Virus record (IMG/VR): IMGVR_UViG_2718217884_000004
Reading direction: 5' to 3' (one strand)
Length of the DNA stretch: 26,719 nucleotides
Source of the DNA: a virus
Taxonomy: Duplodnaviria > Heunggongvirae > Uroviricota > Caudoviricetes
Position numbers and translations under genes: made by a program
In this document: positions 1 to 22,248 of the stretch, in pieces
Layout of the letters: every line of letters starts with the position of its first letter
Position numbering within the stretch: the stretch's first letter is position 1
Notes under the pieces: model-generated
Seen by the model: the letters and a program-made list of their open reading frames with translations, nothing else
Told to the model about the DNA's origin: nothing
The model's database searches: none

Positions 1-1284
1 TTACAGACTTCTGGAAGGTTGCGCAGCTCTTACAACACGCGGTTGATCTTCCGCGGCGTCTTCCAGCGCACTTAAATCACGGTCTTTCACTTCTGGCATT
101 TTCAGCGCAGAGATTAAACCAATCACTGAATATGCCATGATCATAATGGCGATCGGATACCAGGATTCCGTCATGGTGCAGAAAATACCCGCCAGGATAG
201 GACCAAAACCGGAAGCGATAAGACCACCAATTTCTTTAGAAATAGCCATCCGGGTAAAGCGGTTTTTACAGCCGAACATTTCTGCCATGGTAATATTTTC
301 CAGAGCAAATAATCCCAGCACCGCACAGTTATGAATCACAATCAGTGCAACCATAATGGTGCTCGGGGCATAGCTTTTATCTACGATGATAGAAAGCATT
401 GGCCATGCCAGCACAATCGCGGAGGTATTCATAATAATATACGGGATCCGGCGACCAATTTTATCGGATAACCAACCAAGGAACGGAATGGTCATAAAGC
501 CGAGAATCGAACTGATCATCAATGCATCTGTTGGAATTGCTTTGTTAAACAATAACGTCTGCACTAAATAGCCCGCAAGGAAAGTCTGAATTAAACCTGA
601 GTTACCCGCCTGACCAAAACGCAGCCCTGTTGCCAGCCAGAAGGATTTGCTCTGGAACATGCTACCAGCAGGTGCAGGTTTTGCTGTCGGTTGGTTGCTG
701 TCGTTAACCTTCTCAAAAACCGGGCTTTCTTTCAGATTCATACGCAACCAGATAGCAAAGACCATCACGACAACGCTCGCCAGGAACGGTATACGCCATC
801 CCCACGCCAGCAGTTCCTCTTTACTGAGAATGAAGAACATAAAGGCCCAGATTGCCGTTGCGCTTAAAGTTCCGCAGTTAGTTCCCATAGCCACAAATGA
901 GGAGATAATTCCGCGCTTACCTTTTGGCGCATATTCCGCCAGCATCGTACCGGCACCGGAAATTTCCGCACCTGCACCCAATCCCTGAATAATACGCAGC
1001 GTCACCAGCAAGATGGGGGCAAAAACACCAATCTGTGCATAGGTCGGTAACACACCAATTAAGGTGGTACAGATCCCCATCATGGTGATGGTAATAAAGA
1101 GCACTTTTTTACGCCCTATTCTGTCGCCCATTTTGCCGAAAATAAATGCTCCGACAATACGCGCCACATAACCTGCACCGTAGGTTCCCATTGCCAGAAT
1201 TAACGCCATTGCCGTTGATGATTCAGGAAAAAATATTTCATGAAACACTAACGCTGCGCCGAGCGAATATAACTGGAAATCCAT
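1..1284 (-). CDS. ydfJ: MHS-family MFS transporter (ShiA/YdfJ-like); ORF begins inside the conserved first transmembrane segment, so the N-terminus appears removed by prophage insertion
   Basis: 427-aa ORF from the track with multiple hydrophobic segments and the MFS loop motif GKMGDRIGRKKVL. It starts MDFQLYSLGAALVF, which aligns to the WYDFLLYG region of ShiA-type transporters about 30 residues into the protein. Stop codon at 1-3. Confidence 0.8.
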   Translation of the reverse strand: MDFQLYSLGAALVFHEIFFPESSTAMALILAMGTYGAGYVARIVGAFIFGKMGDRIGRKKVLFITITMMGICTTLIGVLPTYAQIGVFAPILLVTLRIIQGLGAGAEISGAGTMLAEYAPKGKRGIISSFVAMGTNCGTLSATAIWAFMFFILSKEELLAWGWRIPFLASVVVMVFAIWLRMNLKESPVFEKVNDSNQPTAKPAPAGSMFQSKSFWLATGLRFGQAGNSGLIQTFLAGYLVQTLLFNKAIPTDALMISSILGFMTIPFLGWLSDKIGRRIPYIIMNTSAIVLAWPMLSIIVDKSYAPSTIMVALIVIHNCAVLGLFALENITMAEMFGCKNRFTRMAISKEIGGLIASGFGPILAGIFCTMTESWYPIAIMIMAYSVIGLISALKMPEVKDRDLSALEDAAEDQPRVVRAAQPSRSL

Positions 1285-2002: not shown

Positions 2003-2070
2003 GTCAACATATCCTGAATCAGACATACAATATCGCAATGAAAATCAATAATATTTTAAGGAATATCTTC

Positions 2071-2304
2071 ATGAAATCAAAAGACACCCTAAAGTGGTTC
2101 CCTGCGCAGCTTCCTGAAGTAAGAATTATCCTAGGGGATGCTGTAGTGGAAGTAGCAAAACAGGGAAGACCTATCAATACCAGAACATTGCTTGATTACA
2201 TTGAAGGAAACATAAAGAAAAAATCATGGCTGGATAACAAAGAATTATTACAAACAGCGATATCAGTTCTTAAAGACAACCAAAATTTAAATGGTAAAAT
2301 GTAA
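2071..2304 (+). CDS. ydfK: Cold-shock-induced prophage protein YdfK/YnaE family (77 aa from the internal Met; track ORF extends to 2038)
   Basis: Track ORF 2038..2304. Residues from M12 (MKSKDTLKWFPAQLPEV...) match my recollection of YdfK; AAGGA precedes this ATG. Confidence 0.7.
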   Translation: MKSKDTLKWFPAQLPEVRIILGDAVVEVAKQGRPINTRTLLDYIEGNIKKKSWLDNKELLQTAISVLKDNQNLNGKM

Positions 2305-2620: not shown

Positions 2621-3211
2621 ATGTCTCGAATTTTTGCTTACTGTCGGATATCAACGCTGGATCAGACCACCGAAAATCAACGCCGGGAAATCGAAAGTGC
2701 AGGTTTTAAAATCAAACCTCAGCAAATAATCGAAGAACACATTAGCGGCTCAGCAGCAACCAGTGAGCGTCCTGGTTTTAACCGGTTGCTTGCTCGCCTG
2801 AAATGTGGTGATCAATTGATTGTGACAAAACTGGATCGCCTTGGTTGTAATGCAATGGATATCAGGAAAACAGTGGAACAACTGACCGAAACAGGTATCA
2901 GAGTGCATTGCTTAGCATTGGGGGGCATTGACCTGACCAGTCCAACAGGAAAAATGATGATGCAAGTAATTTCAGCAGTCGCTGAATTTGAACGAGACCT
3001 TTTACTTGAACGCACTCATTCCGGGATAGTAAGAGCCCGGGGCGCAGGGAAACGTTTTGGTCGACCACCTGTGTTAAATGAAGAACAGAAACAGGTGGTA
3101 TTCGAACGAATTAAGTCAGGTGTAAGTATAAGTGCCATTGCCCGGGAATTCAAAACCTCGCGGCAAACCATTTTAAGAGCCAAAGCAAAACTTCAGACAC
3201 CTGACATATAA
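2621..3211 (+). CDS. pinQ: Serine recombinase, DNA invertase of the Pin/Gin/Hin family
   Basis: 196-aa ORF. N-terminal resolvase catalytic domain (YCRISTLDQ with the active-site Ser) and C-terminal HTH ([18 protein letters not shown]). Called pinQ rather than pinR from the ydfK/ydfJ context. Confidence 0.9.
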
Positions 3212-3308
3212 AAAATAATCTCGGTGTGAGATGCTTTACGTCTTCCAAGCCACCTTCCTTGCCGTAAATGGAAAGATACATCTAATTATAGAATTTATAT
3301 GTTTTACC

Positions 3309-3751
3309 CTACGGCAGTGCTGGCCATTCAATATCCTGTGCAGTTGACGTATCAACACGGTTCAGCAATACCCGATACTTTTTCCATGCTTCCAGCAACG
3401 AGATTTCTTCCTCCGTTGCAATTTCCAGATCTGCAGCATCCTGAAGCGGCGCAATATGCTCACTGGCTACCTGCATCAGGCTGTTTTTTGTTTCTTCCGC
3501 CTCCCGGATCCGGAACAGTTTTTCTGCTTCCGTATCCTTCACCCAGGCTGTGCCGTTCCACTTCTGATATTCCCCTCCCGGCGATAACCAGGTAACATTT
3601 TCCGGTAACGGACCGAGTTCAGAAATAAATAACGCGTCGCCGGAAGCCACATCATAAACCGTTTTACCCCGATGATCTTCAACGAGATGCCACGATGCCT
3701 CATCACTGTTGAAAACAGCCACGAAGCCTGCCGGAATATCTGGCGGTGCAA

Positions 3752-3752
<1 letters not shown>
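3309..3752 (-). pseudogene. tfaQ: Tail fibre assembly protein Tfa, 5'-truncated (C-terminal ~147 aa retained)
   Basis: From [42 protein letters not shown] to the C-terminus the translation matches lambda-type Tfa. The upstream 70 codons of the track ORF (3309..3962) are portal-gene DNA read out of frame. Confidence 0.7.
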
Positions 3753-6482
<2,730 letters not shown>

Positions 6483-6508
<26 letters not shown>

Positions 6509-7028
6509 TCAGCAACCCCGGTATCAGTTCATCCAGCGCGGCTGCTTTGTTCATGGCTTTGATGATATCCCGTTTCAGGAAATCAACATGTCGGTTTTCC
6601 AGTTCCGGAAAACGCCGCTGCACCGACAGGGGGATCCCGTCGAGAATACTGGCAATTTCACCTGCGATCCGCGACAGCACGAAAGTACAGAATGCGGTTT
6701 CCACCACTTCAGCGGAGTCTCTGGCATTTTTCAGCTCCTGTGCGTCGGCCTGCGCACGCGTAAGTCGATGGCGTTCGTACTCAATAGTCCCTGGCTGGAG
6801 ATCTGTCTCGCTGGCCTGCCGCAGTTCTTCAACTTCCCGGCGCAGCTTTTCGTTCTCAATTTCAGCATCCCTTTCGGCATACCATCTTATAACGGCGGCA
6901 GAGTCATAAAGCACCTCATTACCCTTGCCACCGCCTCGCAGAACGGGCATTCCCTGTTCCTGCCAGTTCTGAATGGTACGGATACTCGCACCGAAAATGT
7001 CAGCCAGCTGCTTTTTGTTGACTTCCAT
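6483..7028 (-). CDS. nohA: Terminase small subunit (Nu1 homologue)
   Basis: 181-aa ORF MEVNKKQLADIFGASIRTIQNWQEQGMPVLRGGGKGNEVLYDSAAV..., matching lambda Nu1 with its N-terminal winged HTH. Confidence 0.85.
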
Positions 7029-7205
7029 TGTTCATTCCACGGCCAAAAACAGAGAAAGGAAACGACAGAGGCCCAAAAGCTCGTTTTCAGCACCTGTCGT
7101 TTCCTTTCTTTTCAGGGGGTATTTTAAATAAAAACATTAAGTTACGACGAAGAAGAACGGAAATGCCTTAAACCGGAAAATTTTCATAAATAGCGAAAAC
7201 CCGCG

Positions 7206-7217
7206 AGGTCGCCGCCC
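7206..7217. other. cosN cohesive-end sequence within a lambda-type cos region (about 7030-7260)
   Basis: AGGTCGCCGCCC is the reverse complement of the lambda 12-nt cohesive end GGGCGGCGACCT. It lies about 180 bp upstream of the Nu1 start, the same spacing as in lambda, and the flanking sequence reads as near-identical to the lambda cos region from memory. Confidence 0.8.
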
Positions 7218-8770: not shown

Positions 8771-9115
8771 GATGGTGTTAACTCCAGTCATCGCTGGCAC
8801 TACCACTGCTGGTTCAGAGTTAAAAAAACTATGATTTTTTTCATGATGTTACCGTAGTATGTGAGTATCCATCGAATAGACACCAAGCAAAAAAGCTCCC
8901 GAAGGAGCCTTCATTTTCACTTTTTTAAATCCAACGACAGACGGCTGGCATTTAAGTATTGTGAAATATTATCAAATGTAATCATCATTGATTTACAAAA
9001 GATACATTTTGCCCCGAAAGGATTCATGTCAGAAACATCAAAAGATGATGTTCTATACTGGGAACCATGACAACACGGGCATCTAAAGTGAATATGGTTT
9101 GTAATATTGTCTACC

Positions 9116-9328
9116 TCAAAGCGCCACTACATGAACAGCGGCAGGACCTTTAGGTCCGTTCTCAATACCAAATTCAACTTCCTGATTCTCAGTTAATGTT
9201 TTGAAATCGTTGCTCTGAATTGCTGAGAAATGGACAAACACATCTTTGCTGCCATCTTTCGGCGTGATGAAACCAAAACCTTTTTCAGGGTTAAACCATT
9301 TCACTAAACCAGTCATTTTGTTAGACAT
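9116..9328 (-). CDS. cspI: Cold shock protein, CspA family
   Basis: 70-aa [41 protein letters not shown]... with the RNP1/RNP2 motifs; long upstream leader typical of csp genes. Confidence 0.85.
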
Positions 9329-9689
9329 AATTATTACCTTTTGAAGAAATTAGCCCTTGGGCAGAATGGTCCGAAAAAAATATCAGAGAGAAAAACCAAC
9401 AAGGAAATCTCAAGAGGTACAAATAATAAAATTATAACAATGACTGCTTCAGATAAATTTGTAACAAACCAGAACACCATTAACGCATGATTAACCACCC
9501 ATAGCAAGGATTACTTTTGTAAAGAAAAACACAGCAATGAAAGAATAGCTTTATTTATTAATAAAACGTGTCATTCTGATTAAGACCTTTTATCTTACCC
9601 TTAAGATTTCAGGAATTTTGGCTCATGGAAGAGTCCTTTTTATTTAAATTTTACATTCCGCGATGTAAATGTTCCGATTTAATATTACC

Positions 9690-22190: not shown

Positions 22191-22248
22191 TTTCTGGTGA
22201 CGTTTGGCGGTATCAGTTTTACTCCGTGACTGCTCTGCCGCCCTTTTT
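22191..22248 (+). ncRNA. dicF: DicF small RNA (ftsZ and manX translational repressor) with its intrinsic terminator
   Basis: TTTCTGGTGACGTTTGGCGGTATCAGTTTTACTCCGTGACTGCTCTGCCGCCC followed by TTTTT, between ydfC and dicB. The GGCGG...CCGCC stem plus U-run forms the terminator. Ends are approximate. Confidence 0.6.

Follow-up and report, generated by a model that had tools for sequence, protein, structure and literature searches.

In Escherichia coli, microhomology-mediated illegitimate recombination includes alternative end-joining, replication slippage, template switching and events of the microhomology-mediated break-induced replication (MMBIR) type, and such events are usually described with scattered endpoints. 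Other described deletions are those made at quasi-sites by invertases of the Cin/Gin/Pin family and the Int-promoted deletions of phage lambda, which are anchored at att. For recombination by type IIA topoisomerases the cleavage determinants are -4G, -2A and -1T, a 4-nucleotide (nt) stagger, and +5A, +6T and +8C (PMC10117906). Gyrase sites have in addition a periodic motif of 130 bp. The DNA considered here, IMG/VR virus record IMGVR_UViG_2718217884_000004 (26,719 nt; this whole stretch is the window), carries in its first 9 kb, according to its list of open reading frames (ORFs), the right end of a cryptic lambdoid prophage of the Qin type that is inserted in ydfJ and in which the beginning of a lambda-type portal gene is fused to the interior of a tfa gene. 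The comparison with an intact phage and with related chromosomal loci confirmed that this fusion is the scar of a real 19.5-kb deletion in an E. coli Qin-type defective prophage. The scar very probably arose by a putatively RecA-independent, microhomology-mediated illegitimate deletion, at endpoints which would be intrinsically prone to breakage or strand switching and which have been reused elsewhere.

The minus strand reads ...GTCAGCGAGGACGGCTAT^TGCACCGCCAGATATTCCGG... across the join (a caret marks the break here and below). When positions 3250-4450 of this strand were compared by megablast with 50,697 phage records, the gpW and portal DNA was 97-99% identical to lambda-like phages, and all alignments ended at query position 700, which is window position 3751. 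BLAST against related chromosomal loci placed the end of the portal homology at 3751/3752 and the beginning of the tfa homology at 3753. The original prediction, made from the sequence alone, had the portal homology end near 3751 and the Tfa homology start within a few bases in another frame; the portal end was indeed found at 3751, in codon 211 (...YVSEDGY), with tfa beginning 0-3 nt from it, and no portal homology continued past 3751.

The intact reference was the inducible phage PhiR68_2 (PV340576.1, locus L008), in which both parental genes stand in the normal order Nu1-A-W-B-C/Nu3-D-E-FI-FII-Z-U-V-G-T-H-M-L-K-I-J-lom-stf-tfa-pin. In a three-line alignment the portal parent reads ...GACGGCTAT^CCTGG and the tfa parent ...ACCGATAT^TGCACC. 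Since TAT is present in both, the crossover lies inside this 3-nt microhomology (3751-3753), and the TAT that the prediction had suggested is present in the actual parental sequences. TAT is portal codon 211, because the portal ORF starts at 4383. At the crossover the parents share only TAT, with six of the eight flanking bases alike, and there is no extended homology.

Relative to PhiR68_2, 19,479 bp are absent, close to the loss of about 20 kb and of the whole morphogenetic module that had been estimated. The deleted part comprises the 3' part of the portal gene, protease/scaffold, D, E, FI, FII, every tail gene, J, lom, stf and the initial ~131-134 nt of tfa; cos-Nu1-A-W-portal' is kept on one side and tfa'-pinQ-ydfK on the other, with portal nt 633 joined to tfa nt ~132-135. 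Portal abuts tfa directly, and neither the sequence nor the annotations showed an insertion sequence, an inverted repeat or a transposase ORF at 3700-3800. The fused 226-aa ORF continues past TAT for 15 codons, out of the tfa frame; its product is presumed to be that of a pseudogene. By blastp, portal residues 1-211 align to the PhiR68_2 portal protein, and the 211 residues kept out of 533 fall short of the full length of a functional dodecamer subunit. In the tfa remnant homology runs from codon 45 to the stop, and codons 1-44 with the start codon are missing. The portal and tfa remnants are both pseudogenes.

That there was no deletion, the Tfa N-terminus being simply divergent (a doubt attached to the prediction) or the join an assembly chimera, now has hardly any probability, and nothing was found in its favour. 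The N-terminus is not divergent but replaced: upstream stand 633 nt with 98-99% identity to portal genes (99% over the replacing DNA), and an ordinary 131-nt 5' end is present in native tfaQ alleles whose identity to the remnant is 99-100% (...ANSIDIAPPDIP; protein ...ANS(I/T)...), from which it follows that tfa codons 1-44 were deleted. The assembly collection indexes the exact 226-aa ORF (P0121) in 86 blocks, and the contigs examined came from NCBI and Logan assemblies. The four places shown, to which 22 more contigs had been collapsed as similar, agree in their neighbours, Nu1, A, W, portal', tfa', pin, ydfK and ydfJ. The occurrence in many independent assemblies shows that the junction is not an assembly artefact; the allele is carried by dozens of public E. 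coli assemblies and is real and inherited. Among 5,426 RefSeq complete genomes none had the junction in one piece. Annotation in the public assemblies goes no further than partial genes for portal and tfa. As a deletion scar of a defective lambdoid prophage, here a Qin allele differing from that of K-12, the feature is ordinary and of a familiar kind.

The two endpoints are less ordinary. At DNA level the portal endpoint (GACGGSTA^T), with the left side ...GTCAGCGAGGACGG(C/G)TA, was found with 10 different right partners across strains. Two of them lie in tfa, at nt 131 (TTGCACC, the window) and nt 306 (TCAGAAGTGG; EC09 and L038, protein P0001). Two lie in stf, at L008 41561 (GCGCCACGACGG; strain 2018-10-1CC) and L008 42931 (CCCACAGCGCC; GF31), and one in lom at L008 39838 (TGAGTTTACGG; L010, also GPEC1405). 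The remaining five are FII at L008 28256 (CATGGGAACG; L012 and five IMG/VR contigs among L025-33), the portal gene itself at L008 24478 (CTCCGTGTTT; L014) and L008 24686 ((TC)GTTCGCC; L015), D at L008 26467 (CCCGTAAGC; L029) and C at L008 25040 (TTGCCAGCATGG; L035). All 10 crossovers are inside the four bases TATC. Some of these junctions arose from the native gene and not from each other, because the head modules of L014, L015 and L012 are otherwise complete. A protein survey, in which 120 relatives of the fused ORF were compared with the native portal, gave 22 distinct fusion junctions between portal residues 100 and 211, five of which sit at residue 211; the simulated probability of at least five junctions at one codon among the 112 portal codons was P = 2e-4. 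When use of the portal site at the right-hand side of a junction was scanned for, nothing but a divergent native allele appeared. Further scans, of metagenome and genome contigs, gave chance matches only, in unrelated organisms. A frameshift at codon 211 in another assembly (P0012/L016, GCA_045573505.1, portal nt 634-635) was not counted in support of the hotspot: one C is lost in TATCCTGG, the assembly has several other frameshifts, and the change probably stems from long-read miscalling of a methylated Dcm site.

The tfa endpoint, TA^TTGCACC(G/A)CCAGATATTCC, was found with eight partners on its left: the lambda-type portal at nt 633 (the window) and at nt 403 (L013); a different, cdtI-type portal at nt 1335 (C1, TST3 and TBE6) and at nt 192 (TW14425 and L037); stf nt 1764 (ZH177); sequence beside ynaK of the Rac prophage (MLI023K1); gene C (L035); and an unidentified gene (L036). 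The tfa remnant in the Rac prophage of some strains (L018, from MLI023K1) is thus cut at the same nucleotide as the Qin remnant of the window, at a different locus. Descent of all these junctions from one window-type ancestor, suggested by the likeness of their left partners to the portal GACGGSTA, was considered and rejected, since the ZH177 deletion is internal to stf-tfa. The tfa gene has an imperfect direct repeat, AGTA(C/T)CGATATTGC versus AGTATCGGGTATTGC, at window 3359-3381 and deleted tfa nt 120-135. In one case (L051) the tfa endpoint forms the left end of a junction, the deletion there lying within tfa and running from nt 131 to just before the second copy of this repeat.

One contig combines both endpoints. 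In L035 (IMGVR_UViG_2585427776_000015, 1690-1800) portal nt 633 is followed by 44 nt from gene C (L008 25040-25083) and then by tfa nt 131, both joints having TAT microhomology (GGGTAT/GCATAT and GCCTAT/CGATAT). Such a structure is characteristic of strand switching in series, or else of two short-overlap joins made one after the other. The same contig also has an internal deletion between Nu1 and A with TACC microhomology.

Reuse was found at further sites. A third endpoint, GGTCGGGTA^ACCGCG in stf, is common to the Qin junction of K-12 MG1655 (L069, 1,635,8xx; nohA ...GAATATA^ACCGCGCTGACAG... stfQ) and to the unrelated junction of strain 33-6 (L006; portal nt 432 ...GGCCATG^ACCGCGCTGACAG), the stf endpoints being identical to the base. 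The deleted side ends with GGTCGGGTA in both strains, and the homologous GGTCGGGTA of another stf allele is the kept left end in ZH177. A fourth site was seen in a TfaQ protein search: at Tfa residue 19 (^AGTNEFIGEGD; DNA CTG^GCAGGAACT), which belongs to the part of tfa that the window has lost, no fewer than seven unrelated N-terminal heads are fused, among them terminase A, Lom, the stf N-terminus and antiterminator Q (P0154, P0163, P0191, P0201, P0202, P0206, P0214 and P0215). The range covered by this search stops short of 77% coverage, where the codon-45 junctions would fall.

The portal site GGACGG(C/G)TA^ and the stf site GGTCGGGTA^ have the 9-mer GGWCGGSTA in common. At the tfa site, GG(C/G)TA is the end of four left partners out of eight; as native tfa has (T/C)CGATA, this likeness is not explained by microhomology with tfa. 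The second junction of L012 breaks after GGGCTA, and CC often follows the first base or two past the break.

The window and its closest relatives, EC09 and 2018-10-1CC, have flanks which are 99.8-100% identical and the same portal endpoint, with right partners tfa 131, tfa 306 and stf 41561. Either a recent ancestor that was still intact underwent three deletions independently, or the three form a nested series; the portal site was hit repeatedly under either history. The window junction could be the last of nested deletions, an earlier fusion at portal codon 211 (for example to stf) having been followed by a deletion from that junction into tfa. The near-identical flanks, the common endpoint and the nested order of the partners (stf 41561, tfa 131, tfa 306) agree with such a series, and the retained GACGGCTA would still offer the same TA microhomology to a second event. 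This history is nevertheless rather unlikely, although less so than the PinQ and RecBCD explanations below: each later deletion must begin precisely at the nucleotide where the earlier one had joined, so that a site-specific cause is needed once more, and the portal-endpoint junctions in otherwise complete head modules (L014, L015 and L012) must have arisen in the native context. Moreover, 2018-10-1CC is not the direct ancestor of the window, because it lacks 25 nt of tfa that the window has kept. This 25-nt deletion (L005, 3897-3900, corresponding to window 3701-3725) lies in a tfaQ annotated as frameshifted. The prediction that one junction accounts for the whole loss thus stands for the present structure, while the history behind it perhaps included several events at the same portal site.

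Across the junctions the joins have overlaps of 1-7 nt, mostly TA or TAT; the endpoints are reused with many partners, and those in tfa and stf are used in both orientations. Each endpoint would then be a place where DNA breaks, or where a nascent 3' end leaves or lands, unusually often. The ends may then be joined through 1-4 nt of pairing, mostly TA or TAT; 2-3 base pairs at the termini would suffice, perhaps with stabilisation from the G+C-rich bases that are copied next. Template switching or end-joining of 3' ends is the preferred route, because L035 has the 44-nt insert from gene C between the same endpoints with TAT at both joints.

Site-specific recombination by PinQ between its crossover site and quasi-sites would also give deletions with one fixed endpoint. 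The distance from pinQ to the junction is 540 bp, recombinase events at quasi-sites likewise combine a fixed endpoint with variable partners, and the crossover is always on a TA dinucleotide. Yet no resemblance exists between either endpoint and the Pin/Gin/Hin core AAACCnnGGTTT or the pix repeat TTGGTTTGGGAGAAGG, which is used by PinQ in e14 (PMC12529663), and neither a 26-bp invertase site (AAACC-nn-GGTTT core) nor a pix repeat was found near the window junction or at the parental sites in PhiR68_2. The microhomology of 1-7 nt is not a fixed 2-nt core, and the portal endpoint is reused for deletions internal to the portal gene as well (L014, L015). This explanation is accordingly very improbable.

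Resection of double-strand breaks by RecBCD up to a Chi-like octamer, followed by alternative end-joining, would have the octamer fix the tfa endpoint by protecting the DNA to its right. On the tfa side of the PhiR68_2 and TW14425 alleles stands TCTGGTGG, with seven of the eight Chi bases, on the expected strand and at the expected spacing (4-5 nt from the break), and the short terminal microhomology of the junctions is typical of end-joining. The window and most other alleles with the tfa endpoint have TCTGGCGG, with only six of eight; compared with Chi (GCTGGTGG) in the protecting orientation, it lies in the window at 3739-3746 (minus strand), 4-5 nt inside the kept side, where it would guard this side against RecBCD entering from the deleted part. 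Nothing comparable stands on the portal side, none of the portal, stf and tfa codon-19 endpoints has a Chi-like octamer before it, and the match was noticed after the fact. Such a route is improbable, if less so than the action of PinQ.

Local features of the native portal breakpoint were also considered. The sequence there (L008 24050-24075) forms a quasi-palindrome, CGGC(T)ATCC-TGGCT-GGATGCCG, whose 5' arm holds the breakpoint, with the crossover at the bulged T; the DNA hairpin has a calculated free energy of -7.1 kcal/mol, in the top 2% of 30-nt windows of the morphogenetic region, and only its left four bases survive in the window (3754-3757). A Dcm site, CCTGG, abuts the breakpoint. Nicking by Dcm/EcoRII or Vsr was rejected, as the prophage has 85 CCWGG sites and none is near the other endpoints. 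A resemblance of the portal site to the cosN half-site GCG^AGGTCG was treated as coincidence, since the nick predicted from it is 12 nt from the observed break.

It is tempting to go further and to suppose that lambdoid prophages in E. coli decay through a small network of nucleotide-precise, reusable breakpoints and not by random deletions, which would imply an undescribed sequence-specific breakage or strand-switching activity of host or phage. Its candidate sites are codon 211 of the portal gene, nt 131 and codon 19 of tfa, and in stf the site GGTCGGGTA, the last including the K-12 Qin junction. Breaks in this network may fall just 3' of a GGSTA-type motif, with GGWCGGSTA at the two best cases. 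We consider the network, with its motif, a tentative possibility and somewhat less probable than its contrary.

Several points weigh against these readings. Among the candidate causes of the hotspots, the hairpin was rejected as a general cause, as tfa nt 131 has no notable hairpin; the Dcm CCWGG and the Chi-like octamer each occur at one site only; and the endpoints match only -2A/-1T of the type IIA topoisomerase determinants. The GGSTA motif was defined post hoc, so that its small nominal probabilities are a lead only. The sampling of junctions was biased, several having been found by their likeness to the window junction, and the protein search listed only proteins of up to ~393 aa. Junctions with the same portal endpoint could be nested derivatives and not independent events, and the window junction itself agrees with a one-step as well as with a two-step origin.

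The window scar is a clean, base-resolved case of prophage decay, with cos, both terminase genes and gpW intact. If deletion endpoints of defective prophages are indeed reused to the nucleotide in different lineages and at different loci, models of prophage erosion by random deletion and selection need a term for mutational hotspots, identical junctions are no proof of common descent in strain typing, and the sites are a natural, sequence-defined substrate for studies of illegitimate recombination in E. coli. A literature search, with incomplete access to the literature, found no description of breakpoint reuse in prophage decay. The sampling here was opportunistic. The reuse of breakpoints deserves a systematic census.

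The features of the locus are collected in the table. Gene names agree with those in annotated genomes that are 99-99.8% identical to this region. The assignment to Qin follows from the truncated ydfJ beside ynfT-ydfK-pinQ, an order annotated in K-12 and many other strains, from the small RNA (sRNA) DicF at 22192-22243 (Rfam, 76.7 bits) and from a cspA-type thermoregulator at 9089-9473 (Rfam), in keeping with the cold-shock gene cluster of Qin; in K-12 MG1655 the same locus is annotated as cryptic prophage Qin.

Features of the window around the portal-tfa deletion junction (positions in the 26,719-nt window)
Feature	Position	Strand	Basis and remarks
ydfJ' (major facilitator superfamily transporter, cut by the Qin insertion)	1..1284	-	ORF and annotations; host flank fixing the locus
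ydfK	2038-2304		ORF list
pinQ, serine invertase	2621..3211	+	ORF; named pinQ in near-identical genomes; converges on tfa; kept right flank of the deletion
tfa remnant, ~nt 132 (codon 45) to stop codon	3309..3753	-	PF02413 Caudo_TAP on the called 137-aa ORF
Deletion junction, 3-nt TAT common to portal (codon 211) and tfa (nt 132-134)	3751..3753	-	Three-line alignment with PhiR68_2
5' fragment of lambda-type portal gene (gpB), codons 1-211	3751..4383	-	DNA identity; blastp against PhiR68_2 portal; PF05136
Fused ORF, 226 aa, portal 1-211 plus 15 out-of-frame residues through tfa	3703..4383	-	ORF; identical to P0121, 'phage portal protein'
gpW head-tail joining gene, intact, 68 aa	4380..4586	-	PF02831; kept left flank of the deletion
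Terminase large subunit gpA, intact 641-aa ORF	4583..6508	-	PF05876, PF20454
Terminase small subunit Nu1/nohA, intact 181-aa ORF	6483..7028	-	PF07471
cosN cohesive-end sequence, AGGTCGCCGCCC on the + strand	7206..7217	-	Exact match

Two observations on the kept parts may be added. The ORFs of Nu1, terminase A and gpW, together with cosN (4380-7217), are intact and of lambda length, while all head and tail structural genes are gone; this capsid-less module for the initiation of packaging could be recent or could have been kept for some reason. The kept 3' half of tfa contains a full-length match (221 bits) to the candidate small RNA IS009 (Rfam RF02111), at 3343-3541 on the minus strand.

Among described loci, Qin (Kim) of K-12 MG1655 occupies the same locus with the same flanking order (ydfJ', ydfK, pinQ, then nohA, ynfO, ydfO, gnsB, cspI ... 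DicF), and there too the morphogenetic module was lost through one visible junction, with TA microhomology. The K-12 junction runs from Nu1/nohA (L008 21310) to stf (L008 42453) and keeps the 3' part of stfQ and the full tfaQ, whereas the window has kept the full Nu1, A and W and 633 nt of the portal gene and lacks stf entirely, together with ~131 nt at the start of tfa. The deletions in K-12 and in the window are therefore independent events.

The quasi-site deletions of invertases and the Int-promoted deletions are alike in having one fixed endpoint with variable partners, and a Pin gene is adjacent here; they differ in that neither endpoint has a recombinase site and the length of the overlap varies. 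Recombination by gyrase or topoisomerase IV would similarly give a network of preferred sites in many combinations; the portal crossovers fall within the 4-nt TATC, and the TAT^ sites carry the -2A/-1T of the published motif (PMC10117906), but -4G, +5A, +6T and +8C are mostly unmatched. Microhomology-mediated recombination resembles the events described here in the lack of extended homology at the endpoints, the overlaps of 1-7 nt, the large deletions and the one templated insertion. It differs in that the endpoints are here reused to the nucleotide with many partners, and therefore a site preference has to be added to it.

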